DNA from: Yuukianura sp. NJ FZ-2021
Lineage: Eukaryota
Assembly: GCA_046563655.1 (NCBI GenBank)
Contig: JAJCTO010000010.1
Coordinates: 434,001 to 498,000, forward strand
Direction of reading: 5' to 3'
Length of the DNA stretch: 64,000 bases
The translations under genes were made by a program, and so were the position numbers. Positions 21,448 to 49,132 of this stretch are shown here, piece after piece; the first letter of the stretch is position 1; the number at the start of each line of letters is the position of its first letter. Under the pieces are notes generated by a model. That model did no database searches and was not told where the DNA came from. It saw only the letters and a list, made by a program, of their open reading frames with translations.

Positions 21448-21537
21448 GGATTCGAACTCGCAGCAACAAAAGTCATCCCACAACTCAATTCAACTTTTAG
21501 TTGAATTGATTAGTTGAATTGGGTTGTGGGAGGACTT
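21448..21537 (-). ncRNA. Candidate hairpin RNA plus downstream B-box (Polinton A)
   Basis: Stem of about 26 bp at 21470-21537 ending in TTTT on the minus strand, then GCTGCGAGTTCGAATCC. The same layout occurs at 37314-37410. Confidence 0.4.
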
Positions 21538-21568
21538 GGGAAACTCAACACAAAATATCAACACTTGA

Positions 21569-22488: not shown

Positions 22489-22497
22489 ATTCCTTTG

Positions 22498-22534
22498 ACT
22501 GACTTCTCACAACTCAAGCGTTACTATATATATA
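22498..22534 (-). promoter_or_regulatory. TATA + TCAGT initiator upstream of iap
   Basis: TATATATATA at 22534-22525, TCAGT at 22502-22498, ATG at 22488. Confidence 0.55.
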
Positions 22535-22685
22535 CATTCGCAAAACCTAATTGTAGGGTCGGCTATTAATAGTACAAATTGAAATGACGATGAACATACG
22601 ATTCTGGACTTTGTTCCCACGTGTGCACCTAAGGACATGACTCACCACCGTCCTTGAAACAGGGTCGGACTGTGGACCACACAAA

Positions 22686-22957
22686 AACGATTTTGGACTT
22701 TGTTCACGCGTGTGCACGTAAGGTGTGAGTCACCTTCGTCTTTGAAAACAGATCTGACTTTGTACCAAATAAGACTTCCAAATTAAAATGCCATCATTGA
22801 ACTTAACCTTCTTATATGACTTATTAACGACCTAATTTTATGACTCAACTTCCAAATACTTTGAACCTTCATCTTGCATTCTTGTTTGAGTTATTTCGAT
22901 GAATCAACTTTCGAAAGAAAAACGTTTTACGTTCTTGCACACACCAACCATGCTACT
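22686..22957 (-). repeat. Polinton A terminal (TIR) sequence
   Basis: Begins AGTAGCATGG on the minus strand and matches 63133-63404 in inverted orientation. Confidence 0.8.
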
Positions 22958-23158
22958 GTCATTTGCTCTTTGTAAAATGAGTGTCTACTCTCGCTGTGGG
23001 AAATTAGTTTCACGATTGGACGTTGCTAAGCGTCACGAAAAAACTTGTTCAAAATGTCTTTCGGTTGAATTACTTTTGGATTCTCCCACCACCGCCGCCG
23101 CCACCGCCGCCACCACCACCGCCGCCGCAAAGCCCTCGGACTCCACCGCCAATGGTTA

Positions 23159-23741
23159 TCGAATCATTCTATCTTATTACACCAGACTTTTGTCAAACTG
23201 TGTTGTAATTTCAATCAATTACACTGGACTTTTCTCAAACTGTCTTGTAATTTCAATAAACTACACTGGACTTTTGTCAAACTGTCTTGTAATTTCAATA
23301 AACTACACTGGACTTTTGTCAAACTGTCTCGTAATTTCAATAAACTACACTGGACTTTTGTCAAACTGTCTTGTAATTTCAATAAACTACAGTACTTTTC
23401 TCAATTGCCGGGGGTATTTCCACCCTAATACGTCGCACTTGTGTAATGCAATGCTTTCCACTTCAGCTACAACGTGCTAACATGAGTTAGCACGTCAAAA
23501 TCAAATTTGACTTAGTGTGGAAATACCCCCGGCAATTGAGAAAAGTCTAGTGTAATTGATTGAAATTACAAAACAGTTTGACAAAAGTCCAGTGTAGTTT
23601 ATTGAAATTACGAGACAGTTTGACAAAAGTCCAGTGTAGTTTATTGAAATTACAAGACAGTTTGACAAAAGCCCAGTGTAGTTTGTTGAAATTACACGAC
23701 AGTTTGACAAAAGTCTGGTGTAATAAGATAGAATGATTCGA
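23159..23741. mobile_element. Foldback-type element with 42-bp tandem repeats in both arms
   Basis: TCGAATCATTCTATCTTATTACACCAGAC... mirrored at the end. About 5 units left and 4 right of ACTGGACTTTTGTCAAACTGTCTTGTAATTTCAATAAACTAC. TSD unclear. Confidence 0.8.
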
Positions 23742-23934
23742 GTATGATGCCATAAGGCAAGAAATGAAAAGCATGGCTATAGTCCTCCTCCCCTTCTCCT
23801 CCTCCTCCCCCTCCCCTCCTCCTCCTCCCCCTCCGCTCCTCCTCCTCCTCCTCCTCCTCCCCTCCTCCTCAGATAGCTGAAGAGCATGCCCATACTCCTA
23901 CTCCTCCTCAGATAGCTCAAGAGCATGCCTATAC

Positions 23935-26900
23935 TGGTGAGCGTTTCGATTCGCAAGATTCCTTTTGGGATCACGCTTTTGAACGTCATGTTTACGACCT
24001 TCGCATACCACGTCAAGGTATTTCTCTCAAAGAAAACGTACGCTTCTGGGTATCTTATAAAGTTGTGTAAATTATGTTAGAGTGGGAACCAATAGACGGA
24101 GAAGTTGCGGGTGCAAGTCGTCCCAGGGTACCAGTCAATGACGAATCTGGAGCAAGGAATTTGGAAAGACCAGTAGACCCAGTTGTAGATGCAATTTTAG
24201 AAGGGCTGCTTGATTATGAAGGTAGTAGCAACAGAAAAGAAAAAAAGAGTGATTTGGATGGTTAGTCGTGAAAATAAAAGATTTGGATTTTTCTGTAGAA
24301 GAATTCTCAGAAATTCAAGAATCAGCCATGAATGAAGACTTGTCAAACTTTCGCGAGAGGTTCTGCTCACAATGTGCCATCAATCTTTGAGAATGCAGGA
24401 GAGCTCGACTACCATCGGTTTGAGTTTCATCGCGAACTTTACATTGATCAAATGGAAGGTCAACAGTGGGAAGGAACTCAAAGTGGGCTCGAGATTCGAG
24501 AAGTTCAGAGGGCTGGACGTCGGCGAAATGGCGCTGACGGTGGTCTTGTACGTGAATTCGAGGTGGATTTGACTCCACAACTCTTTGCAAATGTGACGGG
24601 TGTGATGCGAAGTACAGCTAACGCGCTGACAACTTTGGTGGAAGGACTTCTTCAGGAGTTTGGGGGTATGAAGTTGATTTGTACGTTGGTTGCAGAGATG
24701 ACAAGAACATCAAGGGATCGACCAGGTGAAGCCGAGGTGGAACGGTTTCCGTTCAACAGTTTTCTACATGGATGTTTTCATCAGAGTATGATTCAAACTA
24801 TTTTGAGGCAAATGTATTCTAAAATGAGATTGTCTATGGAATCATTCGTTCACCACGGTTCGGGTTGGAAATTGAAGCGCTTCTTGGTACTTCAACTGAG
24901 AGTTTTCGAGTATAGGATGGACCGAGGGTCAAGTTGGGTTTCGACTCCAAAAGTCATTCGCGACAAACGATGCATTATAAATATTCGTAACAATGACGAA
25001 TTATGCTTCAAGTACGCTATCATGGCAGAACTCAACCCACTTTACAAAAACCCAAATGTAGACTGGTACGCTTTACCAATCCTAAAAATTATCAGACGGA
25101 TCTTGATTGACTGGGATTGTATAAATTTTCCGATGACCATCGCTCAACTTGACAAGTTCCATCACTTCAATCCACAGATTGCCGTAAATGTGTTTGGTTA
25201 CGAACCTCGAGACGAACTTGCTCCAAGTTTGAAAGGGAAAAAGAAGATTGATATTTTTCCTCTCTACGTATTTAGAGAAGCAAGAGCTAAAACTGTTGAT
25301 TTGTTATTGTTAATCGACGGAGACAAGTCTCATTACACACTTTTGCCGCAAAGTGATTATAATCCTACGGAGGGCCTGTCTCGATTACTAGGAACAGGTG
25401 AACGGTGGTATGAAATGTTTGTGTGTCGTTTTTGTGTGTGTTTTTCAAAAAGCGAAAAGAAATTGCAAAATCACCAAAAGTTTTGTGCGGCGTTGGACGT
25501 ACAACGTGTCGTTTTACCAACCGAAAAATACTTTACGTCAAGATTCCTCGTGCAACGTCTTCCTTTGCCGTATGTCATATACTTAGATTTTGAATCAGTG
25601 TTAGTACCAACAGACGGGATTGGTACTCGACAGATTGGTGACGTTTATAATGAACATTTAGACTGTGGGTGGTCAATGAGTATCATCAGACCTGACGGTT
25701 ATCTGGCGGACCGTGTAGTAGACCTAACATTTTGTGGTCCGGATGCTGCACTGAGGCTGGTTGACGAACTCGTGTCTGTTGCGGAAAAGATATGTCCAAT
25801 TTTGAAAAAAGATGTAGGCCTCAACCCACGATGGACAGAATCTGACTATGCTCATCTTTTGATGGCTTCAACTCACTGTATTCATTGTGGACTGGAGTTT
25901 GTAGAAGGGGTTGACACTAAGTGCATTGACCACTGCCATGTTACATCAGCCATTCGTGGAGTGAGTTGTGGTCCGTGTAACCTGAACGCCCAAGTTTGTT
26001 CATTTATTCCAGTTGTTTGTCATGGTTTTCGACATTATGATTCGAAATTTATTGTACAAGCATTGCGTGCTAGTACAATTAAATCTGTTGAAGTTTTGGC
26101 GAGCAGCAGCGCCGAGAAGTTTACTGCGCTTCGGTTGACAACCCATGGAGATCATGTTCTGCGAATGATTGATTCGTATCAGTTTATTAGTGCAAGCTTA
26201 TCAGAGCAAGTCAAAATGCTTGCCAAAGAAGGAAAAGACAAATTTGGTGTGACTTGTCATCATTTTCAACAGTACGGAAGTAAAATTGAATTACTTTTAA
26301 GGAAAGGGGTTTACCCTTACAGTTACTTTGACTCTATGGAGCGATTTGATGAAACGTGTTTGCCACCTGCTGAAAAATGGAAAAGCGATTTGACTGGAAA
26401 ATCCATAAGTCCTGAAGACTTGGAACACGCGCACACGGTTTGGCGGGAATTTGGCTGTCAAACATTGAGAGATTATCACAACTTGTACGCTTCTCTTGAT
26501 GTATGTCTCCTGGCAGATTGTTTCCAGAATATGAGAAGAAGTATGCTCGAGAGTTTCCGCCTTGATCCGGCGCACTATCTCACTCTTCCGGGAATTGCGT
26601 ACGACGCTGCAATGTTGGCAGGAAAAGTGGAGTACGAGTATTTGGATGAGATTGACAAGTACATGTATTTTGAACGCGGGATTCGGGGTGGAATTTGTTC
26701 TGTCGGACTACGTTATGCAAAAGCAAATAACCCTTACTTGGGGGATTTGTATGACCCGGCGCTTCCATTGAGTTACATTTGTTACTGGGATGCAAACGCC
26801 TTGTACGCAACTTGTTTGAGGAACTACGTTCCGTGGAAAGATTTTGTGTGGGAAATGTCACTGGAAAACAGAACAAGAAATTTGGATAGTGTCGTGAAGA

Positions 26901-28158
26901 TGATCATGGATTTGGAGGATTGTGGTCCGGAGGGATTAGTTTTGGAGGTAGATTTGGATTATCCGCAAGAATTGCATGATTCTCACAATGACTACCCATT
27001 AGCAGTACAGCGAAGTGAAATAACATACGATTGGCTCTCCGACTACACCAAAGAAGTTTTGAAGAACGTGGGAGCTACACCTGGATCTTGCAAAAAAACA
27101 AAACTTTTGGGAACATTGTGTAACAAAAGAAACTACATTGTCCAGTATCGACTTTTAAAGTTGTTTTTGGAGCTTGGACTGAAACTTGTGAAGGTTCACA
27201 GAGCCATACGGTTTACTCAAGCTCCATTATTTCGTGTATACACGGACATTTGTATAACACGTCGACGCGAAGCGACGAATCCGGTGGATAAGAACTTTTA
27301 CAAGGCCATGGGAAACATATTTGCGGGAAAAGTTTACCAGAATGTCCGGAAATATAGGCGGATCAACATTGCATTATCAAGAGTGAAGATGAGAGAATAC
27401 GCCCGAAAGCCAACCGTTGAGGACGTCAAAATCATTCATGATGAGTGTGTTTTGTTTGTGATGAAAAAGTTGGCTGCTAGGCTAGACAAACCTATTTTTG
27501 TTGGACAGTGCAATTTGGATGATTCCAAATGCAGAATGTACAGTTTTTACTATAAGTGGTTAAAGCCGCGATATGGAGACAACATGAGGCTGATGTATAC
27601 GGATACGGATAGCTTTTTACTTCACATAAAGACGGAAGATGTTTATGCAGATATAGCTGAAAGTGTGAGGAGGAATGAAGGCGTTTTTGACACATCAAAG
27701 TACGACAGAGGAAATGAAAAATTTGGATATTTGTGGAGTGACCAATTTGAAGGGGTTGGTGGTTGCGTCAAGGATAAATGCGCCAACGAAGTAATTTCGG
27801 AAGCAATAGCATTGAAGCCAAAAATGTATGCAATCAAGATGTTGAAGGAGGATGGGACCCAAACTCAGCTGAAGAAGGCAAAAGGAACAGTTCGCTCGGT
27901 TGTCGAGAATGAATTGGATTTTGAAGATTACAAAAAAGTTTTAGAAAACGGGCAGTTCAAGTCTTATAGTATGAATACAATTCGAAGTTTAAATCATCGT
28001 TTGTATACAACTACAATGTTCAAAAAAAAAGTTTGTCAGCATATGAAGATAAGAGTTTTTATTTGTCTCCAATTGATTCATTAAGATTTGGTCATTATAG
28101 AATTGAATTAGAAAAGAATTTGCATCAAATTGTAGACGGTATGGAAGAAGATGAATAA
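23935..28158 (+). pseudogene. polB: Polinton A pPolB, copy 2 (1250-aa ORF 24332-28084; 5' exons; terminal frameshift)
   Basis: All exonuclease and polymerase motifs lie in one ORF. The true C-terminus LSAYEDK...LRFGHY is in another frame after the A-run at about 28025. Intron 24018-24080; tentative intron 24261-24298. Confidence 0.92.
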
Positions 28159-28216
28159 AGCCAGTTAGACTAAATGTCCTTCCAGTTAGTAGTTGTTTGG
28201 AGTTTGATTTGTTAGG

Positions 28217-28875
28217 ATGGAAATCCAATGTTCATTGCGGCATCCGTTTGTCATGGTGTTGGCCGGTCCTACACAAAGTGGAAAAAGTACATTGATAAAA
28301 AAGTTTTGGAACGTTTAGACGAAGTTGTTGAGCCAAAAATCAAGCGTGTAATCTACTGTTATGCCGAGGATGAGCCGGATTTTGCAAAAAGTTTAAAAGG
28401 AGTTAACAGGGGAAAAGAAATTGAAATTGATTTTCGCCAAGGTATGGATCAAATTGATGTTGACATTGGAAACAAGACGCCAACCCTTGTTGTGTTGGAT
28501 GACTTTATGGAAGACCTTGGATCATCTTTGGATATTTGTAGAATGGTTACTCGGGGTTCTCATCACCGTTCACTGTCTCTTATGATTACGATTCAAAATT
28601 TTTTCTTCAAAGGATGTAGGAATTTGACTTTAAATGCAAAATATGTTGCATTATTTCGAAATCCAAGGGATAAGACTATAATAAAATATTTGGGACGACA
28701 AATGAAAGGCGAAAAATCAAATTCGACGCTAGAAGAAGCATTTGAGGATGCTACAAAGAACAAGCCAAATAGCTATTTATTTTTAGATATGTCTCAAAGT
28801 CAAAATGATGACTTTCGAATAAGATCAAATGTATTTGCAGATCCAGAATCTTGTATAGTATATTTGAAAAAGTAA
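28217..28875 (+). pseudogene. Packaging ATPase, copy 2 (1-nt frameshift near 28296)
   Basis: Mirror of 16090-16749; Walker A is out of frame with the remainder. Confidence 0.88.
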
Positions 28876-28881
28876 CATACC

Positions 28882-29376
28882 TTAGTTTCGTTTCAACTTT
28901 GACAGTCCTTCTGTGAGACAATCAAATAAATGAATTGGAATCACAACACTAGATCCAGCATCGTAAACATTTTTAATATGTAAATGTGTGAGCGGTCCTT
29001 GGTCATTTCCTTGTTCATTGCCAATGTAGAGCTGCCAACCATCTTCCAAATTTACTCGTGGTGGTGGATGTGGTTTAGGAAATTCTTGACGAACTTCAAC
29101 AACCATTGCCAAAGATGTGACTTTACGAGGAATCTTGGGAATTCGAACTCGTTTGCGTTGTTTTTTTTCTTGGGTAGTATCCGTGAGTATATTTGGGTTT
29201 AGGTTAAGAAAATCTTGAATTGGAGAATGCCTTTCGACTGGCTGGAGTTCCGACGTTTTATTGAGGTTACAGCTACAAGAAAAGGTTTCACAAACAGTAA
29301 TTGTTGTAGTTGAATTTTTTTTGAAGCAAAAATTTGCAAAAGAACGCCACAGAGAGCAAATTTGACACGAGCTCAT
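28882..29376 (-). CDS. Conserved Polinton protein, copy 2
   Basis: Translation identical to 15589-16083. Confidence 0.6.
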   Translation of the reverse strand: MSSCQICSLWRSFANFCFKKNSTTTITVCETFSCSCNLNKTSELQPVERHSPIQDFLNLNPNILTDTTQEKKQRKRVRIPKIPRKVTSLAMVVEVRQEFPKPHPPPRVNLEDGWQLYIGNEQGNDQGPLTHLHIKNVYDAGSSVVIPIHLFDCLTEGLSKLKRN

Positions 29377-29388
29377 GTCACGACGAAG

Positions 29389-30351
29389 TTAAACTGAAGA
29401 CTGAGGAACGCGTTGCAGTTCTTCGTTGTAAAATATTCCAAATATGTCTTCACCTTTGCCGTCTTTTAACTTGTAAGTGACGGGAACGGAGTTGCAAACT
29501 TCAACAATCTGGAAAATTTCTTTTGTCCAGCTTTGGGCGTATCCCTTTTCAAAAAGTGTTTTATATTTACTAAGTAGTACGGAGTCTCCAACATTGAAGG
29601 TAGCAGGTTTCCTTTTCGGTTGGTTTTGTTTTGGTAAGTGTCCGTACAAATTTAGAAATACTTCAGTTTTTGTGTCGTCATTGACTTGGTTTGGTGTACA
29701 TTTTATGGAGCGATGATATGTGTTGTTGTATGAAGTTACAATATTTTGCAAAACATCTAAGAATTTTGTGGTCTGATTGTGTGTCATATATCTCGCCAAC
29801 CTTCTCATTAATGTTCGGTTAAATCTTTCAACAATAACTGCCTTCAGTTCTGATCTAGTACTAAAGAATGAAACAGAGTATTGTTTTAAAGGCTGTTTAA
29901 CATTTCGATTTAAAAATTCTTTCCCTTCGTCAAATTTAATTGACTTTGGAGGGCCTCTTTTCTTAAAGATTTTTTGTAAAGCGTTTGCTACTTGACTCCC
30001 AGTTTTATTTTTTAAAGGGATGACGTCAGCGACTTTAGAAAAACCGTCAATACAAGTCAACAAGAACTTATGATTCGTATTTGCTTCAGAATACTTTGAA
30101 ATATCGATTAGATCAATTATATACTGATATCTTATGGACGGTATAAAAACTTTTCGTCTTTTGTAGCGTTTCCGAGCCGGTTTGTGAAGAGTATAAGCTG
30201 GAATTTGTTCTAATGCTTTTAGTACATCAGTTTTTGTGACCCCACTCTTCTTTTGAACTTTAAAAGTTCCTTCTAATCCTGAAAATGCAAAACTTGAACG
30301 AGGATTGACGTAATCCTTGCGTATTTTTTCTATTAAATGTTTCTGCTCCAT
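29389..30351 (-). CDS. int: Polinton integrase, copy 2
   Basis: One amino-acid difference (L/P) from 14614-15576. Confidence 0.93.
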   Translation of the reverse strand: MEQKHLIEKIRKDYVNPRSSFAFSGLEGTFKVQKKSGVTKTDVLKALEQIPAYTLHKPARKRYKRRKVFIPSIRYQYIIDLIDISKYSEANTNHKFLLTCIDGFSKVADVIPLKNKTGSQVANALQKIFKKRGPPKSIKFDEGKEFLNRNVKQPLKQYSVSFFSTRSELKAVIVERFNRTLMRRLARYMTHNQTTKFLDVLQNIVTSYNNTYHRSIKCTPNQVNDDTKTEVFLNLYGHLPKQNQPKRKPATFNVGDSVLLSKYKTLFEKGYAQSWTKEIFQIVEVCNSVPVTYKLKDGKGEDIFGIFYNEELQRVPQSSV

Positions 30352-30445
30352 TATCTAAATGAAATCTGACCCTAAGACTTGAAAATGCCAAACGTTTTAT
30401 ATGAGAGGTATACACACAATGAAATGAGTCATTTGAAGTTTCAAC

Positions 30446-30795
30446 ATGAAGCTGGTCACACGCATAAGTTCACACAATCATGTCTACAACTGTGAAAGAA
30501 AACTCACTTTTTGTTCACCACAACAAAGAAAAGCGTTAATTAAATATGCTAGTAGTGGTGAAGTCAAAAGTATTTGTGAATGTGTTTTGAATATATACAA
30601 AAAAATGTTGGTCTAAAAAAGTCTACAGTTGAAAAGTTACGTCCATTCAAAAGAACAATACTTTCAATTGTAAAGAAGAGACGCTCATCATTGGCAAAAA
30701 AGAAAAAACTTTTGTCTCAAAGGGGTGGTGCAATAATTCCGTTGCTATTAGGATCTATGATCCCAAGTGTTCTATCAGCCATCTTTCAAAAATGA
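30446..30795 (+). pseudogene. Small basic QRGG protein, copy 2 (A-run frameshift near 30600)
   Basis: Mirror of 14169-14519. Confidence 0.7.
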
Positions 30796-31889
30796 AACGA
30801 ATGCGTCTAATATCGGAATCAGAGTACAAGAACAAGTATGAAGAACCAAACAAAAGTTCCATAGAGTCACCAAAGATTGTGGGGGGTGAAGATGAAGATT
30901 TGGAACACAAGAAGCAAATAATTTTATCAGTTGACGATGTACCAGATGATATCAAAGCTCTTTTATACTATGATTTTTCTCGCCGCCTACTCCAAAAAAA
31001 AAATTTGTCAAATCGTCCAGTTTTAGTCAAGTCTATTTCTGAAACTAGTTCAAATTTGACATCAACTTCAAACACCAGTAACAACAACAACAACAACAAT
31101 CAATCCAACTTGGTACAAAAAATTGAGTATGTTACAGAACCATACATTTTAAAACAAGTACCAGGAAAGGATGCCAAAAAGTTTATAAACTTTATGAAAT
31201 TGAGTAACATCAGTTGGAATTCAGACTTGGAAATTTTGATTGATAATAAGCGAATTCCTTCTTCAAATATCATCAATGTCCTCTCTCAATTTATTTCATT
31301 TAAAAAGAAAAATTTGACCGAAAGGCAAAAACAAAATCTCCTATTTAATATACCAGTTGGATGGAATGAAGTTTATGAACATTTACAAAAATTTGAAGAA
31401 ATCCAAACACCACCACAAACTGTTCGTAGGATTCTTGAAAAAGTACCAACAGGAGAAGTTGGTAGTAGAAGAGAAAATTTAACTACTACAACAGTTGCCA
31501 GTGAACCAACAACCCCCCTTTCATCCCTTTTTAAAGGAGATTCTGAAGGAAATATTGAGGAGGAAGGGGATGATGATGATGATGTGGAAAGTAATACATT
31601 TGGTACACCACCAACCTTGTCTCCACAACAACATCAAAAATCATCTCCACTCAAATCTCTACCAATCAAAGACAGACTTCGAAAACGAGAAAACTTTACT
31701 ACTACTACGACTACTACAAATGACAGTACAAAAAGTAAAAAAAAATTGTCAAAAAACAACTTGCCAAAAGTTGGGAAGCATATAAAAATTAAAAAAAATT
31801 CTTTTGTGTGTGTATTTGAAAAAAATCCTTGCTTCCATGCTTGCAGGGATGCGCGCGCGCGGTCCCTGCTTTGCCATGGTGGGTTTTAA
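30792..31889 (+). CDS. Conserved Polinton protein of unknown function, copy 2
   Basis: 365-aa ORF homologous to 44891-45562. The C-terminus is uncertain. Confidence 0.7.
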   Translation: MKRMRLISESEYKNKYEEPNKSSIESPKIVGGEDEDLEHKKQIILSVDDVPDDIKALLYYDFSRRLLQKKNLSNRPVLVKSISETSSNLTSTSNTSNNNNNNNQSNLVQKIEYVTEPYILKQVPGKDAKKFINFMKLSNISWNSDLEILIDNKRIPSSNIINVLSQFISFKKKNLTERQKQNLLFNIPVGWNEVYEHLQKFEEIQTPPQTVRRILEKVPTGEVGSRRENLTTTTVASEPTTPLSSLFKGDSEGNIEEEGDDDDDVESNTFGTPPTLSPQQHQKSSPLKSLPIKDRLRKRENFTTTTTTTNDSTKSKKKLSKNNLPKVGKHIKIKKNSFVCVFEKNPCFHACRDARARSLLCHGGF

Positions 31890-32115
31890 ACCCAACAAGG
31901 CTACGCTGGGTGTTACTCCCTGCTGACCACGTGGGTTTTAACCCTGCGTGCAACTTGGGTTTAAGCCCTGCGTGCAACTTGGGTTAAAGCCCTGCGTGCA
32001 ACTTGTATTTAAGCCCTGCGTGCAACTTGGGTTTAAGCCCTTCGTACAACTTGGGTTTAAGCCCTGCGTACAACTTGGGTTTAAGCCCTGCGTGCAACCC
32101 GGGGTTTTTAACCCC
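31880..32115. repeat. 24-bp palindromic-core tandem array (7 units)
   Basis: GGGTTTAAGCCCTGCGTGCAACTT units. Confidence 0.88.
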
Positions 32116-32220
32116 TGTGCCCCCTCTACTTTTTTTTTCTTAAGTAGTAAGTAAACGTTGTATTTTATCTTAGTGTGATTTTGTATTTCGTCAAATAAAC
32201 ACGTGAATCTCAAAAAGAAA

Positions 32221-33020
32221 ATGGCGCATCAACAGCGTGACACCTCATTTTTTGTAACATTACAATCAAACGCATGTATGGATTTATTTCCAGAAAATAA
32301 AATTTCAAATTTCAAAAACCGTCTTTCTACAACAATCTCTTTCCCAGCTGGGCAATGGGAAGTTGCGCTTACAGAAATCTCATATACATTTGGAAATGCA
32401 ATAATACATTCTGGTGACGTGTTATTTTCAACTTTCAAAAAAGTGAGGACGAGTTTGTGTCGTCGTTACAAACATATGTCTGCAGCAGAAACATTACAAG
32501 TGAACAGGAACTGTTACAAGAACTGTCATCTGCTCTAAACGGAGCTACTTTTGAAATTAGAAACCACATTTTCTATTATCAATTTCCATTGCTACATGAA
32601 GGAATTATAGTTTCACAAAAATTGGTTGATATTCTTGGATTACCTAAACCAGATCTTTCTGGAAGAAGTAATGCAAAAGCTACAGAAAAACTTTTTCTAC
32701 AAAAACCTCTTCAACTCAAAGGTCAAGGAACAATGCCCGTCTTTTTTAATACTGGAAATACAAAAATGTTTGTATACTGTAACCTTATTAAACCACAATT
32801 TGTTGGAGATGTACTAGTACAGTGTCTGCGGGTTGTCAATTATGATGGACACACACGACGTCAAGTTGTTAATGAATTTTCGCATCCATATTTTTTGGAC
32901 CTAGCCGTAAGTGAGTTTGACACTGTCAAAATCTATTTATTAAATGAAGTAGGAGAAAATCTGGCATTACAATTTGGAAACGTGACGGCGACGCTTCGCT
33001 TCCGTCAACGAAAATATTAA
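32221..33020 (+). pseudogene. Minor capsid protein, copy 2 (A-run frameshift near 32440)
   Basis: Mirror of 12036-12836. Confidence 0.85.
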
Positions 33021-33030
33021 GAGCAAAAAA

Positions 33031-33477
33031 ATGAGAGCCTTAGTTCCATACAATTGCGCTAGAGATGGCGCTGAAAATTTCTTCAAATTTTCAACTCATC
33101 TCAATCCTCCTTTTCATCAAATTGGTTATGGATCCCCCATATTTTTTAGTGGAGTACGAAGACAAAGGGGAGCCGGGTTGGGAGCTGTGCTAGGTACATT
33201 TGCACGGAGGCTAGTACCATTTTTAAAAAAATATATCGCTCCACATGCATTGACGGCAGCGCGTGCAGTGGCATCTGATCTAATTGAACGTAAACGTCCA
33301 TTTTCTGAATCACTTCGTTCCCACGGAATAGATGCTCTTAAAGAAGCAGGGCGGGACTTGCTTAATCAGACGGGATCTGGACGGCGAATCACAAAGAAGC
33401 ATAGAAAACGAAAGAAAAAGAAAAAGAAAAAAGTTGCCAAAAAAGCAAAAGCTTCCAAACTCAGATACCTCTTTTAA
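33031..33477 (+). CDS. PW-like protein, copy 2
   Basis: Translation identical to 11578-12024. Confidence 0.7.
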   Translation: MRALVPYNCARDGAENFFKFSTHLNPPFHQIGYGSPIFFSGVRRQRGAGLGAVLGTFARRLVPFLKKYIAPHALTAARAVASDLIERKRPFSESLRSHGIDALKEAGRDLLNQTGSGRRITKKHRKRKKKKKKKVAKKAKASKLRYLF

Positions 33478-33493
33478 CAAAAAAAAAAACAAA

Positions 33494-34843
33494 ATGCCAA
33501 AAGTTAAATCTTCCAGAGTTTCTCCATCATCTTCTTCTTCTTCTTCTTTACCTTACACATTTGTTAGATCAGAAACACAACTCTTTGAAGAACCGATATT
33601 TGATGTTAGTCTGGCATCAACTTCAGCTACGGAATTTCATTCAATCAACTCACTTTCAGACAATCAAGCTCCTCTAGAATTTTTTGTACAAGGAAACCAA
33701 ACTGAACTAGTCGACTTGTCGGAAACAAAACTTTATTTAAAAGTCAAAATTGTGAAGCAGAATGGTACAGATTTGGACGACACCTCAATTGTTGCATCAG
33801 TCAACAATTTCCTTCACTCTTTATTTCTACAGTGTTCAATATATCTCAACGAAGTTTTAATTACTCCTGCAAGTTTGCAATATGCCTACAGGGCATACTT
33901 GGAAACTTTACTTGGATATGGAAAAGAATACAAACGCTCCCAAAGTCAATGCTCACTTTTCTACAAGGAAAAGGATCCTAAATGTACAGATGAAACAAAA
34001 GAGGATGGATTTAAACAAAGATACGCATTTGCTGTAAAAAGCAAAACAATTGAAATGGTCGGGCGTCCATTCACCGACCTTTGTGTTCAAAACAAATTTC
34101 TTGTTCCTTCAATTGACTTGCGGATTTCATTTCTAAGATCCACTCCAGAATTCTGTCTTGTTGCCAAAACAACTGGCAACTATCAAGTTCAAATACAAGA
34201 TGCACGTCTAATTGTACAACGACATCAACTCCTTCCATCCTTACTAACTTCAATTCTCCAAACTTGGGAGCATGGGAAACCAGCGACTTATCCCATGAAA
34301 CGAGTTGAAATTAAAACATATACCCTATCTCCTGGTACAGTCACCAACGTAAACGAAAACCTCATTTCTGGTGTCATATGTGATCGACTACTTATTGGAC
34401 TTTTACCGTCAGAAAACTACATTGGATCTATAACTACAAATCCATTTGCATTTGAGCACTTTGACTTGAGCTATATAAATGTCAGTATTAATGGTGACTC
34501 TGGAACTGCACTTGGGACACATGTTGACTTCAGCCAAGATCAATATGTTCAACTCTACCATAATCTGTTTAGTAGTCTCGGAATAGCCAACGACGACGTT
34601 GGATTAGATTTGAACCGGGAGGAATTCAAATCTCACCCACTAATGCTATATAATCTCAGACATTCAAAAGAAGGGTTTCCTACTCCGAAGTACGGCAACG
34701 TCAAAATTGATCTCAAATTTAAAACGGCACTCAAATGCTCTGTCACCGTCCGCGTCTATGCCGAGTTTCAATCCGTCTTACACATTGATTCTACAAAATC
34801 AGTATACTTTAGAGACTACAGTCTAGCCAGCCTTCAACAATGA
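33494..34843 (+). CDS. Major capsid protein, copy 2
   Basis: Starts MPKVKSS; 3 amino-acid differences seen from copy 1. Confidence 0.88.
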   Translation: MPKVKSSRVSPSSSSSSSLPYTFVRSETQLFEEPIFDVSLASTSATEFHSINSLSDNQAPLEFFVQGNQTELVDLSETKLYLKVKIVKQNGTDLDDTSIVASVNNFLHSLFLQCSIYLNEVLITPASLQYAYRAYLETLLGYGKEYKRSQSQCSLFYKEKDPKCTDETKEDGFKQRYAFAVKSKTIEMVGRPFTDLCVQNKFLVPSIDLRISFLRSTPEFCLVAKTTGNYQVQIQDARLIVQRHQLLPSLLTSILQTWEHGKPATYPMKRVEIKTYTLSPGTVTNVNENLISGVICDRLLIGLLPSENYIGSITTNPFAFEHFDLSYINVSINGDSGTALGTHVDFSQDQYVQLYHNLFSSLGIANDDVGLDLNREEFKSHPLMLYNLRHSKEGFPTPKYGNVKIDLKFKTALKCSVTVRVYAEFQSVLHIDSTKSVYFRDYSLASLQQ

Positions 34844-34980
34844 ATACACAACAAATTTATTCTTATCTTGCCAAAATTGTCGGCAAATATCCTTCAACTT
34901 TTGATGTAATTCCAATAGATCATTTGAGTAACATGCAAATTTTCACCTGTCCACTTCTCATGGTCGTCAACAGTGCTCCT
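34840..34980 (+). pseudogene. Protease 5' fragment, copy 2
   Basis: Mirror of 10077-10217. Confidence 0.8.
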
Positions 34981-35352
34981 TATATATATATATATATATA
35001 TGTCCGCTCGGCCGAAGAGCTTAGCGATACTCACACTCCTCCTCCTCAGTATAACACAGACCGGCCCATACCATTGGCGGTGGAGTCCAAGGGCTTTGCA
35101 GCGGCGGCGGTGGTGGCGGCGGCGGTGGTGGGAGAATCCAAAAGTAATTCAACCGAAAGACATTTTGAACAAGTTTTTTCGTGACGTTTAGCAACGTCCA
35201 ATCGTGAAAATAATTTCCCACAGCGAGAGTAGACACTCATTTTACAAAGAGCAAATGACAACTAAACCTCAGCTTCAGAAATGACTTGGTTTATATACAG
35301 AAAATTTTTATTATACAAGTATTTCAAATTTATTCTAATTTTATAATAAAAA

Positions 35353-35620
35353 TTATTTTGGAATATCTCTATGGCCAAAAGCTAGAGTATTGATACTATC
35401 TACAGCATATCTTTTAGTGTCTTACCCGTTGAGAGCCTTCTTCATGGTGACCTCTGTAAAAATTCTGTGTTCGACGCTTCTGAAACCACGCATGGTGACC
35501 ATAGTCTGAACATTCTCCTTGAGGACTCGTTCATAGTCTTCATACTTGACTTGCCCATTCACTGCCGTCTTGGTTATTCCTTTTGCCTTCTTGGTATAGT
35601 CATCCTTCAAGAGCCATTCA
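35353..35620 (-). pseudogene. polB: Polinton C polB extreme 3' end, separated from the rest by Polinton B
   Basis: KKAKGI...TLAFGH. Continues 55858+ once the insertion is removed. Confidence 0.88.
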
Positions 35621-36165
35621 AGTAATAACCTTAGTTTAGCTAGTAGAACCGAGATGGGAGAATTCCATCTCAGTTCTGCTGGCTGATTTGTGCTTTATGC
35701 TGGAAATCTGAAGTAGGTCAGTGGGAATGAAATGCATCCCCCACTCCCCGTGTCCCCCCCCTGCGCATTGAACAAAACAATGTCACGCTGAAGACTCTAC
35801 ACACATAAAATTTGAAAAGAGGATTGGAAAAGAGGAATTGAGTAGTTGCTCTTGAGATGATGGAAATGATGGAAGTTTGTTTAAGAAAATCAAATTTACA
35901 AAACTGTAAATTTTTGAATTTAGACTACAAAACAAAAAAAAACACACAAAAATATTTTCTGATGTTTGTCGATTCATTGAATGCATAAAACAAATTTGTG
36001 AATGTTTTGGATCCAAATTTTGTTTGGTCTTGTTTGGAGGAGTGTGAGAAAAAGTTTCAGATTCTTCACATAAAATTGATGGGTTTCTCGTCACATCTCA
36101 AAAGAACAAAAGCAATAAAATTTGACTTGACACAACATGTCAGAGTTGACACTCTGTAATCCCCT
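35621..36165 (+). repeat. Polinton B left TIR (first ~103 bp near-identical to right TIR, then decaying similarity)
   Basis: Matches the reverse complement of about 55305-55851. Confidence 0.88.
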
Positions 36166-36250: not shown

Positions 36251-36885
36251 ATGGATCACAGTCAGTTGAAACACTGTCATAATTTTGACACTGTTGTTTT
36301 TAAAAATAAGTTACCAGAATCCCATCCAGCTCTTTCTTTTTTAGAAAAAGAGGGTACTATTTTTGGTAGAAAAGGCGAAGTTTTGGAATTTTCTGAGTCC
36401 TCATCAGAGGATTCAGACGGCGATGACGAAGAGAATGGAGGGCTGTCGCGCCGCTACTGGCGCGAAAAAATTCGAGTGAGACCCCAAGTGGACTTAAGAA
36501 CGTACAGAATGAGAATAAGGCTTGGAAAGTAAGTGAAAAACTATTTTTCAAATAAAAATGTATGTTTGAAAAGTGAAGTTTTGTAAAAAAAAAACTCTAT
36601 TTTCAGGCCTTGTGTATTTAGTTTCAAAATCATGACGATGATGAAGAAGCAAGGTTGGATTCCAGGCCAACGGCTGGGAAAAAACGGGACTGGTCCACTC
36701 TATCCAGTAAGTTGTTTAAGAAGAAGTTCTGAATATGTTAATAGTAGTTTTATTTTATATAAGTTAATTAATTTTCATTTGTGATGTAGATGTATGCGGA
36801 GGAAAGCCAGGAGCTTTGGGGTCAACACTCGGACGGTCGCGGGTTAGGAGCGGAAAGTGTGAAAAGTTTTATGCTCGCAAAATAA
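36251..36885 (+). CDS. G-patch domain protein, 3 exons (36251-36528, 36607-36706, 36790-36885), about 157 aa
   Basis: Spliced product KIMTMMKKQGWIPGQRLGKNGTGPLYP...GRGLG fits the G-patch consensus. Introns are GT-AG and the frame is open. Confidence 0.85.
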
Positions 36886-37247
36886 TTTTTGTTGGTTAAA
36901 TAAAAAGTTTGCATTATCAATAAAATTTGATTAATTTGAGAATGAAAAGTGTTTTGGTTTTGGGAATTCGAGTATAGTCTTTGCAGTTTGGTTAGCTTGA
37001 AAGATTAGGAGTTTGAAGGTAATTTCTTTAATTTTTGGTATTTTTATGAATTGAAGCGGTTGAGCCGCGGCAGCCTTTTTTTACAAATTTCCTTTTACAA
37101 AATTTTGATTAGGTTTTTTCATGATTTTATAATTTTTGTTGCTTGACTCAAAAATAGTTGTACGAAGTTGAATGAAGTGTTTTTTTGCTTTGTGAAAGAG
37201 AGGAGACGACGAAGCTTTGTGTTTCTTAGGATTTGGAGAAAAAGGTG

Positions 37248-37410
37248 GTGGATCTCCAAATCTGTCAAATACTTTGACGGTATTTGATCCACGAATTGTT
37301 CTAGTAATTAAATAAGTAACTCAATTGCCCAGTGGTGTAGATGATCCATTGAGCAATTGAGTTACTTTTATGCAAATTTTTTTGAAATGTATGCTGCGGG
37401 TTCAAATCCC
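37248..37410 (+). ncRNA. Two tandem hairpins plus downstream B-box (Polinton B)
   Basis: Stems 37248-37292 and 37314-37367, the second ending in TTTT, then GCTGCGGGTTCAAATCCC at 37393-37410. Confidence 0.4.
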
Positions 37411-37754
37411 GCACCTTGCAGAATTTTTTAATTTTTTTGTACTATTATATAATATGAGAGTTTGGGGAAAGTTTTGAACCGAAAACTAATGTTAAAAATT
37501 TCGCTAAAAAATTTAAAACACTTTTGTAGTTTTGTTGGAAAACGCTGACAGTTGTTTTGTTATGTAGCTTTTTTCAGCTTTTGAACACACAAATTTTTCA
37601 AAACATGATTCTTTTCAGGGGGAAGTGAGGGGAGTTTAAATGATTCCGTAATGGGGTGCGGCTGGAGTTTAGTATAAATTCTTTGAAATTTTGGGAACTT
37701 TTGATCAGATATGTGACGCTCATGTAGCTAGATTGAGGTAAATACGATTAAGTC

Positions 37755-40700
37755 ATGGCAGGTAATTACTTTTGCTCATTTTGCTCCACATACTTTGATT
37801 CACTTGAGCTGTTTGAAAGTCACTGCCGGAGATATCACAACAGGAATACTGAACAAGCAAGTAAGACTTTGAAAATGTAAATTGTAGCTTTTTTTATCTA
37901 TGTCGAATTGTTTTTTGTTTTAAATGTCAGTGGAACAACCGGGTTCAAGCTAATCCATGAGGGGTAGACCAGTTCACAATACCAATTTTGAGAACAGCTT
38001 AGACAACAGTCAATTCAACGAAGCTTTAACTGATGTTGTTAATATTAATAATAACGGTATACTTATTAAATCCTTTCTTTGCTAAAATGTAACTTTATGA
38101 ATGATTTGGTTTCTCAGAGCTCCTGATGGAGCTTTCTGCGGATGATCTTGAGGTGATTGAGCAAGTACTGCGGGAAGATGACCTTAGCCTTGGTATGTGA
38201 GCTAACCTAACCTAGATTTGGTTCAAATTTGTATTTTTTTTCCAGAACTGTCTCCGCCAAATGTTTGGACAGAAAACGTAAATTTTAAGAACCGATTTTG
38301 TCCACTCTGTGTTGTTCGTTTCAAAGACGCGGGTGATTTGGATTTACATCGGTTTGTCTATCATCCGGAACTTTTTGAGAGAAGTGAAATACCAGTTCAA
38401 GTAGGTGGACGATTAAATGCTGCTGAATTTGTTCTCCAGCGTGGAAGAAGAGGACGTGAAGGTATAGTTCGAGAGTATGTTGCTGACTTGACTAGAAGTA
38501 TTTATGGTGACATTGAAGGAGTGTTTACGTGTCATGAAGTGATTCTATTAGAACTTTTGAGGAACATTTTTTTGGAGATTGGAGCGTATAGAATTTTGGG
38601 GACCGTCTACGCTGAAATGACAAGATTAGCCAGAGATGTCGCTGGTGTCAGTGAAAGTGAAGTTTTCCCATTTCACTCATTTATGCATAGTGTTTTAGAT
38701 CCTAGTATGGTATCAACAGTTATTCATCAATTACAGCGCAAAATGTCACTATCGTTGGAAGCATTTCTATACAATGGTTCGGGGTGGAGAGTGAAACTGT
38801 TTACAAAATTTCAACTACGAATTTTGAAATTTCAAATGGACAGAGCTTCAAGTTACATTCCTACACCAAAGTCAATTCAAAACAAAAATTGTGTTGTGAA
38901 TATAAGAAACACTGATGAGTACTGTTTCAAGTATTGTATTTTGGCAGCATTGTTTCCTCTTTACCAGAATCCAAACATTAACTGGAAAAGATTCACAGAT
39001 CCGAGAGAGTATCTTAAATACAAATGCAGTGTTGACTTTGACTGTATCAACTTTCCAATGTCAATTTGTCAGATGGATAAATTCTTGCACTTTAACTCCA
39101 GTTTAGCAGTAAATGTTTATGGTTATGAGGAATTGGATGAACTGGACTCTAACATTTCAAAAAAGAAGGTCACCGTTTTTCCATTGTATGTGTGTAAGGA
39201 AAGAAGAAAGTTTAACATTGACTTGCTCTTGTTGCTAGATGGTTTGAAAGCTCACTTCACTTTATTAAAGAAAAGTGATTTAAATCCTTCGGAAGGTCTT
39301 TCTAGACTTTTGGGAAAGGAAGAACGGAATTATGCAAAATACATCTGCAGATTCTGTCTACTCTATTGGAAAACAAAGAAGAAGCTCGAGAATCATGAAA
39401 AATACTGTGCCGCTTTAGAACTACAAAGAGTTTCGTTACCAAATGAAAAGTATTTCAATTTCACAAGAATTAAGAGAACACTGCCTGTACCAGTTGTCGG
39501 TTATTTGGATTTTGAAGCAATTTTATTTCCACAAGCAGCAAGTGACCTAACGTCAAAGGTTGGTGATGTGTACAATGAGCACATTGCTTGTGGGTGGTCA
39601 CTCATATTGATTGGACCTCTCGGTGAAGCACTTGAAGGAATTAAAATTTTTCAAGGTCATGACGCGCAGCATACTGCTCTTGATGAGTTAATCAAAACGG
39701 CTTCAAAATATTTTCCACTCCTAAAAGTTGATGTTGGGCGGGATGCAAGATGGTGTACTACAGACTTTTATAACTTGCTTCATGCCTCAACACACTGTAT
39801 ACATTGTGGTATGGAGGTTCCTAACCGCGAAAAAGTGATTGATCATTGTCATTATACCGGAGCTATTCGTGGAATGAGTTGTAGCAAGTGTAACTTAAAT
39901 TGTGAGACAGTTAATTTCATTCCAATCATATGTCACGGTTTTCGTCACTACGACTCAAAATTTATTGTACAAGCTCTTAAAAGTACAAAACTGAAAAAAG
40001 TGGAAGTGCTACCTCACTCGATTGAAAAGTTTACTTCAATGCAATTGACAACTTTAGAAGGATATGTACTTAAGTTCATGGATTCTTTTCAGTTTATAAG
40101 TTCAAGTTTAGCCGATCAAGTCAAAGTTTTGGCAAAGGATAACTTTGATAAGTTTCCCATAACAAAAGCCACATTTGATAAGAATTATAAAAATATTAAT
40201 TTGTTGTTTCGAAAAGGAGTGTATCCTTATACATATTTTGACAATTTTGAAAAGTTTGATGAGACAAGTTTACCGCCGAAATGTCTTTGGGTGAGTGACT
40301 TAACAGGGAAAGGAATTAGTGATGAAGACTTTGAACATGCACAACGTGTTTGGAAAGAATTTGGTTGTAAAACTTTGAGGGATTACCACAACCTATACGT
40401 ATCTCTAGATGTCACACTTCTTGCTGACTGTTTTCAAAACTTTAGGCAAAGATTTTTAGCAGATTTCCGTTTAGACCCTGCTCACTATTACACTTTGCCT
40501 GGTATAGCATATGATGCTGCTATACTATGTGGCAGTGTTGGTTTTGAATATTTGCAAGATTTGGATCAATATACGTTTATTGAGAGAGGAATTAGGGGTG
40601 GTATTTGTAGCGTTGGCTTGCGCTATGCAAAAGCAAACAACAAATTCTTAGGTTCATCCTATGACCCTACGCTACCAACAAGTTATTTATGTTTGTGGGA

Positions 40701-42040
40701 TGCAAACGTGCTGTACGCCCACCAACTTCGAAATTTTGTACCATGGAAAGACTTCCGGTGGGATTTATGTTTGTGGCAAAGGACAGTGAAGCTGGAACGA
40801 TGTCATAAAGATGATTCGGGGTATGGACGACGAAGCGGAAGAAGGTTTAATTTTGGAAGTAGATTTGACGTATCCAAAGGAGCTGCATGATTTGCACAAC
40901 GATTACCCACTTGCAGTTGAGCGGCGATCTATTCAGTTTTCAGATTTGTCATCCTACACACATCATGTTATGTATAACGCAGGAGCGAAGTCTTCAACTC
41001 AAAAAAAGACAAAGTTGGTGGGAAGTTTAGAAGATAAAAAGAATTATGTTGTACACTACAGATTACTAAAACTTTTTTTAGAACTTGGTTTGAAGTTAAC
41101 AAAAGTACACTGTGCTTTGAGGTTCAGACAAGCACCATTGTTCCGTGTATACTGTGAGTTGTGTATAAAAAGGAGCCAAGGGTCAACAAATGAAGTAGAC
41201 AAGAAAGCCTACAAAGCTTTGGGAAACATTTTAGTTGGAAAAACGTTTCAAAATGTTAGAAAATATAAGCGAATTAATGTTGCCCTATGAAAAGAGAAGA
41301 TTTTGGAGTATGGTAAAAAGCCTACAGTAGAAGATATTAGAATAATACATGATGACTGTGTTCTATTTCAAATGAAAAAGTTGTCTGTGTGTTTGAATAA
41401 GCCAATATTTGTAGGGCTTACTGTGTTAGACGATAGTAAAAAACAAATGTATGAAGTATACTATAAGAAACTGAAACCACGTTATGGTAGTAATATGCGT
41501 CTAATATTTACAGATACTGATAGTTTTATGTTATATATTAAGACAGAAGATGTTTATGCAGATATTTATGCTAGTGTAAGGCAAGACGAAGGGCTATTTG
41601 ATACGTCAAATTTTAAGAAAAGTGATAAGCTACTAGGACACTTGTACAGTGACAAGCATGCTGGAGAAGGGGGATACTACAAAGATGAGAGTCCAGAGTG
41701 CATAATTTCTGAAGTTGTGGCTCTAAAACCAAAACTATATTCTTTGAAGCTGGTGACACGTGACGGAGAGGAGAGAGAAATTAAAAAAGCAAAAGGTACT
41801 GTGACTGCAGTGCTGGAGTCTCAGTTAAGCTTCAAAGATTATAAAGATGTATTAGAGGAAGGTAGCTGTAGATTTGTATCAATGAATACTATTCGTAGTT
41901 TAAATCACAAACTGTACACAACAACAATGAAAAAGCAGAGCTTGTCTGCGGTAGATGACAAGGCCTTTTATTTGACACCAATTGAATCCCTTAGATTTGG
42001 ACATTATAAGATTAAAGAGTTTCAAGATAGTGTTGTGTAG
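37755..42040 (+). pseudogene. polB: Polinton B pPolB with spliced 5' C2H2 exons
   Basis: Exon 1 MAGNYFCSFC...HCRRYH. Introns include 38057-38117 and 38193-38245. Motifs GSGW, YLDFEA, DHCH..CN, RKGVYPY, DANVLY and FTDTDS. Frameshift near 40790 and stop at 41288. Confidence 0.92.
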
Positions 42041-47752: not shown

Positions 47753-49132
47753 ATGCCAAAAGTCAAAGCTTCAAAATTAAAAAGTTCATCCCATGCTGCT
47801 CCCTACACTGTCATCCGATCAGAAACACAACTTTTTGAAGAACCAGTCTATGATGTTTCACTTTCTTCAACTTCAATTTCTGAGTATCATTCAATTAATT
47901 CAATCACTGATTCTCAATCTCCACTTGAATTTTTTATTCAATCAAATCAAGTGGAATTTTTAGACCTTGCTGAAACTAAACTATATATTAAGGCACGTAT
48001 TGTTAAAACTGGCAATTCAACTTTAGAGGAAGCGGATATTGTTATACCAACAAACAATTTTCTTCATAGTTTGTTTTCACAATGTTCAATTTATCTAAAT
48101 GAAGTCCAAATCACACCCGCAAATAATTCATATGCTTACAGAGCCTATATTGAAACCTTATTAGCATATGGAAAAGAATTTAAAAAATCTCAAAGTCAAT
48201 GTGCATTTTTCTACAAAGATAAAGATCCTAAAAATACAGATGTAAAATTAGAAGGCGGTTTGAAAACTCGTTACGATTTGTCAAAATCTTCGAATGTAAT
48301 TGAATGTTTGGGACGACCATTCACAGATATCTGTATGCAAAATAAGTATTTAGTACCTGGAATTGATGTTCGAGTTTCGTTTCTCCGCTCTACTCCAGAA
48401 TTTTCACTCATCTCCAACGTAGCTAATGCAAAATATCAAGTGCAAATTTTGGAAAGTAAATTAATAATACAAAAACAAAGCCTTCTTCCATCTCTACTCA
48501 CTTCTACTCTAAAAACTTGGGAACAAGGAAGACCAGTCACTTATCCTCTGAAACGTGTTGAAGTCAAAACTTATACAATTTCTCCTGGAACTATAAATAG
48601 TGTGAATGAAAACTTGTTAACTGGAATTGTACCTAGATAGAATAATTTTGGGACTCATTCCTTCTGAAAATTTTATTGGCACTTATGCTACAAATCCTTT
48701 TGCTTTTGATCATTTTGGACTAAATTATATTCATGTTAGTGTAAATGGAGATTCTGGTTCAAGCCTTCCAGTGGCTTGAACCAGGCTTGGTTCAAGCCTG
48801 GTTCAAGCCATTGTGATTTTGAAGAGAATCAATACGTACAATTGTACAGTAACCTTTTCTACGGACTTGGAATTTCAAATGATGACGTTGGAATTGATTT
48901 AAATTGGAGTGAATTTAAATCTAATCCACTATTCGTTTACAACTTGAGACATATAAAAGACGGATTTCCAGCTCCAAAATATGGAAATGTTAAAATTGAT
49001 TTAAAGTTTAAGGAAGGTTTGAAAAAAGCAATTACTGTCGTTGTCTATTCTGAACTACAGTCAGTCTTACATATCGATAGTTCCAAATCAGTTTACTTTA
49101 GAGACTACAGCGGATCAACTATTGATTCATGA
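47753..49132 (+). pseudogene. Major capsid protein (frameshift near 48635; 35-bp insertion 48774-48808)
   Basis: Collinear with the family A capsid across three frames. Confidence 0.88.

Follow-up and report, generated by a model that had tools for sequence, protein, structure and literature searches.

Two diverged Polintons within the window, i.e. the whole stretch of 64,000 nucleotides of Yuukianura sp. DNA that was analyzed, carry a common module upstream of the first exon of their polB gene: on the polB strand, a long hairpin is followed by a run of T residues that begins within the hairpin base, and then by a 17-mer bearing a B-box. We favor the interpretation that this module is a compact RNA polymerase III (Pol III) gene for a hairpin RNA, probably remodelled from a captured tRNA gene. 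Based on the sequences and on the comparison with known systems, we assign a probability of about 0.4 to this reading. Two full copies of the module and one partial copy are available, all of them from one genome; the two elements with full copies are called A and B in the following.

The window contains a gypsy-type LTR retroelement (842-5536) and Polintons. Element B is delimited by inverted repeats, of which the left one (8764-9443 plus 35621-35760) is interrupted by a composite of 26 kb (9440-35620) and the right one (55712-56532) is continuous; the uninterrupted version of the insertion site of the composite is found in the right repeat at 55830-55880. The composite consists of arm A, an inverted copy A', and a unique centre (21271-23934). 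Both arms have a length of about 11.8 kb and are 100% identical in inverted orientation (A: 9439-21270 minus a MITE; A': 23935-35620). This composite could be a head-to-head Polinton dimer, a product of hairpin replication, or an assembly artefact. Its unique centre includes a 42-nt tandem repeat in two arrays that are inverted relative to each other (23159-23394 and 23536-23745). Next to them lies a segment (22957-23156) whose sequence is also found close to the outer end of A (9799-9989) and of A' (35070-35260), so that it represents a third copy. Other repeats are a 24-nt repeat array inside A' (31889-32122), mirrored in A near 12959-13175, and an 11-nt tandem repeat forming a long array near the window end (62437-63100).

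The polB proteins of A' and B are 54% identical, and the conserved genes of the two elements are 71-76% identical in DNA. The polB frame is whole in A' (24332-28084, 1250 aa) and split into two ORFs both in A (16882-20632) and in B (38218-41290); the protein carries an Endonuclease VII domain (PF02945). Its neighbours in a protein atlas are mostly of arthropod origin or of Polinton type and possess Endonuclease_7, DNA_pol_B_2, and sometimes C2H2 domains; for few of them the taxon is known. In A as well as in B, a short C2H2-like ORF, followed by a splice-donor-like site, precedes polB on its own strand, and we read it as a candidate first exon of this gene. The exon of A contains a MITE of 236 nt (20960-21195) that does not occur in A'; its inverted ends measure about 60 nt, and it has an 8-bp duplication (ATACCACG). 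Copy A' is itself truncated in exon 1, at position 23935, and has no module.

The module is located upstream of the exon 1 ATG, at a distance of 141 nt in A and 345 nt in B. The genes further upstream are unrelated: element A has an IAP-like gene with BIR (PF00653) and RING (PF13920) domains (21569-22488, minus strand), and element B has a G-patch gene (PF01585) in pieces (36251-36885, plus strand). Hence, the module travels with polB or stands alone, and it is not part of an upstream gene. Between module and ATG, the two elements have a TATA-like TACTATT motif in common, which lies 28 nt downstream of the box in B and 75 nt downstream in A. The 10-mer form of this motif in A, TACTATTTAA, occurs as four exact copies in the window (21373, 42539, 45702 and 50787, all on the minus strand), and variants are found at 22574 (minus) and 37440 (plus). 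The ATG of polB exon 1 and that of the BIR gene in A are preceded by a copy or variant at a distance of 66-86 nt; other copies are away from obvious gene starts. The 10-mer may represent an element-specific TATA-like promoter motif.

Table 1. Features of the module and its surroundings in elements A and B. Positions refer to the window and are given in reading direction for minus-strand features where the analysis did so.
Feature	Position	Strand	Description
Upstream hairpin of B	37248-37292	+	folds; specific to B; outside the conserved module
Hairpin, module B	37314-37367	+	15-bp perfect stem, C.A mismatch, 6 bp, 10-nt loop; candidate hairpin RNA
A-box-like motifs of B (two, overlapping)	37317-37335	+	5' arm and loop; TAACTCAATTG at 37317, TTGCCCAGTGG at 37325
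T4, module B	37366-37369	+	overlaps the stem end by its first two T; candidate Pol III terminator before the B-box
T7, module B	37377-37383	+	inside the spacer; candidate Pol III terminator before the B-box
17-mer of B	37393-37409	+	GCTGCGGGTTCAAATCC; kept between A and B
B-box of B	37399-37409	+	GGTTCAAATCC; +86 from hairpin base; exact match to GGTTCRANYCY
tRNA 3'-half look-alike of B	37396-37429	+	T-stem GCGGG/CCCGC, loop TTCAAAT, 7-nt acceptor-like ACCTTGC, A, then T6 (37424-37429)
Short ORF of B	37387-37431	+	MYAAGSNPAPCRIF, then stop; 14 codons across the 17-mer
TATA-like motif of B	37440-37449	+	TACTATTATA; common to A; between module and polB ATG
Candidate polB exon 1 of B	37755-37860	+	C2H2-like; ATG at 37755; candidate donor GTAAGA at 37861
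Hairpin, module A	21537-21470	-	stems of 5, 9 and 10 bp, two mismatches, 16-nt loop
T4, module A	21471-21468	-	begins inside the hairpin base
17-mer of A	21464-21448	-	GCTGCGAGTTCGAATCC; 3 nt after T4
B-box-like motif of A	21458-21448	-	AGTTCGAATCC; +80 from hairpin base; matches RGTTCRANYCY
Short ORF of A	21429-21476	-	MTFVAASSNPTLRNE, then stop; 15 codons across the 17-mer, which is read in the same frame in B
TATA-like motif of A	21373-21364	-	TACTATTTAA; between module and polB ATG
Candidate polB exon 1 of A	21196-21307	-	C2H2; ATG at 21307; interrupted at 21195 by the 236-nt MITE

Both hairpins fold far better than expected from their composition. The hairpin of B has a fold energy of -28.5 kcal/mol (antisense strand: -28.2 kcal/mol) and a shuffle z-score of -7.2, that of A an energy of -32.4 kcal/mol (antisense strand lower, at -38.4 kcal/mol) and a z-score of -5.3; in each case none of 200 shuffles was equally good. 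Counted from the hairpin base of B, the two A-box-like motifs stand at +4 and +12; each has one mismatch to TRGYNNARNNG, matches of this quality (at most one mismatch) having a background rate of 0.0075 per position. Module A contains no A-box, as its best match to this consensus has three mismatches. The T4 run and the 17-mer of B are separated by a spacer of 23 nt, within which the T7 run lies and which the original prediction had passed over. The sequence of B is backed by contigs assembled from three DNA runs: one covers 37207-37389 with no difference, another 37310-38000 with eight.

The original prediction had described the order of hairpin, TTTT, and B-box in both elements, and we find its strings where it had placed them and the order confirmed. 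Confirmed are likewise the same position and orientation relative to polB in two diverged Polintons, as well as the statement that the DNA flanking the modules does not align. The second hairpin that it had reported for B (37248-37292) does fold; it is specific to B and stands outside the conserved module, being absent in A and, with regard to its 3' half, missing in a third lineage (described below), where a contig has a loose end before 37305. The A-box-like motifs of B, the third lineage, the broken T-arm of A, and the short ORF across the 17-mer had no place in that account.

Are the modules of A and B homologous, or did similar pieces come together by chance? The 17-mer common to both elements, with the B-box inside, can be written as GCTGCGRGTTCRAATCC. 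In its degenerate form it has two matches in the 64-kb window, compared to an expected number of 0.01, and two matches were reached in 0 out of 100 shuffles. The B-box consensus RGTTCRANYCY by itself is frequent, with 12 matches on the two strands of the window. Hairpins with a stem of at least 13 bp number 11 in the 64 kb, two of them being modules A and B; T4 or longer runs occur within 3 nt of 5 out of the 22 3' flanks of these 11 strong hairpins, the DNA being AT-rich. An 18-nt match taken alone is not significant (blastn-short, 3 kb against 3 kb: E = 6.6). A gapped local alignment of the two modules, used instead of a global MAFFT alignment that misplaced the module, reaches a score of 34 and spans AATTGAGTT, ACTTTT, and the 17-mer, up to TTG.AGAA; the same score was reached by 3 out of 500 shuffles and by 21 out of 1468 random pieces of the window. 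The intergenic flanks of the modules do not align. Thus, no single part of the module is decisive, and what goes beyond chance is the conjunction, in which hairpin, T-run, and box agree between A and B in order, strand, and place relative to polB exon 1. Both of these strong hairpins have a T-run and the shared box no more than 35 nt further along the polB strand, at a matching place relative to exon 1, and we conclude that modules A and B are homologous and not coincidental.

Further copies of the module are absent from the 64-kb window, where the arm motif has only chance-level matches with three mismatches, inside polB. A separate hairpin with a 21-bp stem is located at 48756-48813, in the region of B that is homologous to a 503-aa ORF of A'; it is built from repeated GGTTCAAGCC units and their complement and includes two exact matches to GGTTCRANYCY.

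A comparison of the two hairpins indicates that the pairing has been maintained by compensated changes and by a paired indel of 8 nt. In a register set by hand, the stem pairs AAGT/ACTT, AAC/GTT, and CAATT/AATTG are common to A and B, and in three further pairs both partners have changed with pairing retained (G:C to C:G, C:G to A:T, and A:T to T:A). Element A has, moreover, an insert of 8 nt in each arm (CCTCCCAC and GTGGGATG), and the two inserts pair with each other. Folding and covariation had been suggested as a check by the original prediction: besides the z-scores given above, RNAalifold on its own MAFFT alignment predicts 18 common pairs, five of them changed on both sides, a count that is indicative only, as it comes from two sequences. 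The T-run lies outside the palindrome, i.e. in neither element are the bases 5' of the hairpin complementary to it. The wobble pairs show no strand preference, and folding of the antisense strand is on a par with that of the sense strand in B and surpasses it in A; hence, the pairing fits a DNA palindrome as well as an RNA hairpin. If two U of the T-run are included, both hairpins form a full stem with a 2-nt 3' overhang, and thus both folds have the dimensions of a pre-miRNA or shRNA (stem of about 21-24 bp, small loop, 2-nt 3' overhang). The last 22 nt including these two U begin with ATTGAG in A and B in spite of the paired 8-nt indel, a register that was noticed post hoc. The best scores with miRNA families of Rfam are 31.5 bits for B and 32.0 bits for A, against gathering scores of 99 and 100, and represent generic hairpin matches on both strands.

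Evidence for a third lineage comes from contigs of the three DNA runs, which belong to one sample of one study and were compared with positions 36900-38000 at 80% likeness. Three other contigs match only 37305-37345, with three differences. Their 3' arm continues as ...CATTGAGCATTTGAGTTACTTTTT with a T-run that is T5 here; running on as ...CATTGAGCATTTGAGTTACTTTTTGCC, it is two substitutions away from the 3' arm of B before the T5 is reached. One third-lineage contig (2581 nt) also matches 37750-37866, i.e. polB exon 1 and the donor, with 21 differences (about 82%), and the gap between the hairpin match and the exon match is 371 nt, versus 404 nt in B. A third Polinton lineage therefore retains the hairpin, the T-run, and the spacing to the polB exon. 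Its hairpin is about 90% identical to that of B, versus about 82% for the adjacent exon, and the DNA between them is not matched at 80%. The missing 3' half of the upstream hairpin at 37248-37292 in this lineage shows that this hairpin is not part of the conserved module. Over 37307-37343, the depth exceeds the value in the flanks by a factor of 2-3, and a contig of 84 nt leaves the hairpin into unrelated sequence, for which no counterpart was found in the window; the hairpin may thus occur in additional sequence contexts.

Outside this genome, relatives of polB were collected with alignment queries, which returned one and then five IMG/VR contigs, and with a single-protein query, which returned nothing. 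Among the five distant, adintovirus-like contigs (polB 28-33% identical), none has, in front of polB, a hairpin that is followed by a T-run and a B-box in sense orientation; one metagenome relative offers only 156 nt of upstream flank. A scan of viral contigs for the module pattern gave no match, and neither did the string of T-arm and acceptor. Two pattern matches in prokaryote genomes were dismissed as archaeal chance matches with no tRNA at the site. Presence in related Polintons was the criterion set by the original prediction; the third lineage has the hairpin, the T5, and the spacing, and none of the five distant contigs has the module. As far as seen in the viral, metagenome, and prokaryote collections compared, the module is lineage-specific.

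A B-box is part of tRNA genes, and the 3' part of module B resembles the 3' half of a tRNA; a tRNA gene was rejected nevertheless. ARAGORN predicts no gene in the window, and Rfam gives no match at gathering score; no tRNA row appears even at E-values up to 10, where only sub-threshold miRNA-hairpin rows and a 17-nt fragment of a tmRNA T-arm are found. When the ARAGORN thresholds were lowered to 40-60%, the calls in A and B were mutually inconsistent. Furthermore, the acceptor and anticodon arms are lacking, and the acceptor-like ACCTTGC of B has no 5' partner. The T-stem pairs in B and would be GCGAG/CCTAC in A, with two out of five pairs broken, while the B-box letters of A stay within the consensus. 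Conservation therefore acts on the sequence of the box and not on an RNA structure, as is expected for a TFIIIC site.

In both elements, the T-run (T4 in A and B) follows the hairpin and precedes the B-box, which is the order known from bovine leukemia virus (BLV). We rank a Pol III hairpin gene of the BLV type first on account of this order, the near-equal distances of the box (+86 in B, +80 in A), the hairpins with 2-nt overhangs, and the shared ATTGAG register. According to this model, TFIIIC would bind the B-box just downstream of the hairpin and, in B, possibly also the A-box-like motifs of the 5' arm; it would position TFIIIB upstream, so that transcription by Pol III begins close to the AAGT of the hairpin base. 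The polymerase would read the hairpin of 54-68 nt and stop in the run of T4 to T7. Because this run begins with the last two stem bases, the transcript would end in a U-tailed 3' overhang fit for Dicer, and the B-box would be left untranscribed, as in the miRNA genes of BLV. Module B may still contain the remnants of a tRNA gene: the 5' arm could derive from a string of D-arm and A-box, and the 3' part from the T-arm, the acceptor-like heptamer, and the trailing T-run. This Polinton lineage would then carry the module where a variable accessory gene and polB adjoin. The original prediction had proposed a Pol III small RNA of a form like either the adenovirus VA RNAs or a pre-miRNA; the hairpins and their BLV-type layout agree with the latter, and the VA-like form was not upheld, since there is no Rfam match and the hairpins are as short as 54 and 68 nt. 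A more specific version of our model, which we consider possible and on balance doubtful, reads the module as a Drosha-independent Pol III pre-miRNA or shRNA that is encoded by an animal Polinton/Maverick lineage, arose from a captured tRNA gene in convergence with BLV, and yields a 3'-arm small RNA starting with AUUGAG; this RNA might act on host RNAi, on transcripts of the host or of rivals, or on the element's own polB.

Among the alternatives, a module that acts on the DNA level within the polB promoter region deserves close attention. It would give rise to no stable small RNA; the B-box would be a boundary or insulator of the extra-TFIIIC type, or the site of another factor, and the palindrome a protein-binding or cruciform element that separates the accessory gene from polB. 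The box kept as sequence and not as structure is in line with it, as are the lack of an A-box in A, the equal or better antisense fold expected of a DNA palindrome, and the location upstream of the shared TACTATT motif and of polB exon 1, a similar motif preceding the BIR gene of A. The sequence is also compatible with a TFIIIC-only site, such as the insulator proposed by the original prediction; nothing supports the origin that was named along with it. However, arms of 21-24 bp with loops of 10-16 nt are far longer than the usual half-sites of factors, and such a module leaves two things unexplained, namely the T-run that all three lineages have at the 3' base of the hairpin on the polB strand and a spacing that copies a Pol III unit. 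We regard a purely DNA-level role as rather unlikely. It is improbable that we are dealing with a decaying relic, devoid of present function, of a tRNA gene, or of a tRNA-derived SINE or foldback element, ancestral or inserted twice, whose box and palindrome have not yet eroded. The resemblance of the 5' arm of B to a D-arm or A-box, and of its 3' part to T-arm, acceptor, and terminator, would fit such an origin, and so would the depth of the hairpin at 2-3 times its flanks, the 84-nt contig that joins it to unrelated sequence, and the tRNA genes reported in passages on polinton-like and related viruses (PMC12220804, PMC8502044). Yet the intergenic DNA has diverged beyond alignment, the module and the third-lineage hairpin are better kept than the adjacent coding exon, and both arms have changed together. 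Against independent insertion speaks the same place and orientation in both elements; no target-site duplication flanks the module in A or B, and the 64-kb window holds no further copies.

Two other interpretations invoke RNA polymerase II. In one of them, the hairpin belongs to a leader or to an inter-gene region, a kept upstream ORF of 14-15 codons tunes polB translation, and the likeness to a B-box is a coincidence. An ORF from ATG to stop crosses the 17-mer in the same frame in both copies, which a random 17-mer, given the frame, would show only about 6% of the time; two out of four substitutions in or just after the 17-mer are synonymous third-position changes, and the stops align after an indel of one codon. 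The ATGs are not homologous, however: that of A is situated in the 8-nt arm insert specific to A, that of B in the spacer specific to B. Moreover, the variable positions are exactly the degenerate positions of the B-box consensus, the TATA-like motif downstream of the ORF would place it outside the polB mRNA, and the tiny peptide belongs to no known family, so that we consider this interpretation quite improbable. The other one, to which we give very little credit, assigns the module to the upstream accessory gene as its 3'-end or terminator element, made up of a 3'-UTR hairpin and a U-rich downstream element. It could draw on the stop of the BIR-RING ORF of A at 21569, 32 nt before the hairpin, with an AATAAA after the box (21433-21428), and on an ATTAAA (37304-37309) and an ORF stop (37313-37315) that abut the hairpin of B. 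But the homologous modules stand next to unrelated upstream genes, the poly(A) signal precedes the module in B and follows it in A, and 3'-end formation by polymerase II does not involve a B-box.

Polintons, or Mavericks, are regarded as virus-like transposons that code for proteins. Should the module prove to be expressed, an animal Polinton would for the first time be seen to contain a non-coding RNA gene, and the BLV-type design, in which the terminator precedes the B-box, would have been reinvented independently; with one hairpin and one box, the module would offer a handle on how such elements meet the small-RNA defence of the host. If it is a TFIIIC site only, it would still be a conserved boundary element within a mobile element. 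In a search of full-text literature, we found no paper that relevantly joins Polinton, Maverick, or adintovirus with Pol III, TFIIIC, B-box, VA RNA, or pre-miRNA; one candidate for such a link, PMC6152972, was rejected, the passage in question being unrelated.

Several known systems share parts of the design. The B-box of yeast SNR6 (U6) acts from beyond the terminator, and ETC sites bind TFIIIC without a gene. Both differ from the module, in that U6 is a conserved snRNA with an upstream TATA and ETC sites have no adjacent hairpin and terminator. The adenovirus VA RNAs are about 160 nt long and their B-box is transcribed. A VA RNA is not supported for the module: Rfam has no VA row, the hairpins comprise 54 and 68 nt, and the terminators precede the B-box. 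The likeness consists in Pol III type 2 genes with internal A- and B-boxes, following the consensus given in the relevant section of PMC12498455, and in the fact that adenovirus belongs to the same wider lineage as the Polintons. Furthermore, tRNA genes are documented in polinton-like and related mid-size DNA viruses, according to the pertinent parts of PMC12220804 and the legend of figure 6 in PMC8502044. The tRNA genes of such viruses are a plausible source of the boxes, although the module, unlike them, is not a tRNA gene according to ARAGORN and Rfam. In the TMERs of murine gammaherpesvirus 68, unlike in the module, a tRNA-like part stands in front of the hairpins, and both are transcribed together. 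In these genes, tRNA-derived A- and B-boxes drive hairpin RNAs. The tRNA/TMER A1 motif TAGCTCAATTG, tabulated in PMC12498455, is identical to 37317-37327 at 10 out of 11 positions.

The closest likeness in layout is that to BLV. According to the passages on this virus in PMC12498455, its non-canonical type 2 promoters have A-box-like motifs just after the start and a B-box at about +65-85; this B-box is located downstream of the Pol III termination signal and not in the pre-miRNA, and its mutation abolishes expression. There is no sequence homology between the two systems, and the module, unlike its viral counterpart, resides in a DNA Polinton and not in a retrovirus, forms a single unit and not a cluster, lacks an A-box in A, and is known here from sequence alone. 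Like the BLV pre-miRNA genes, it combines a short hairpin with a T-run at the hairpin base and a B-box just past the terminator, here at +86 and +80.
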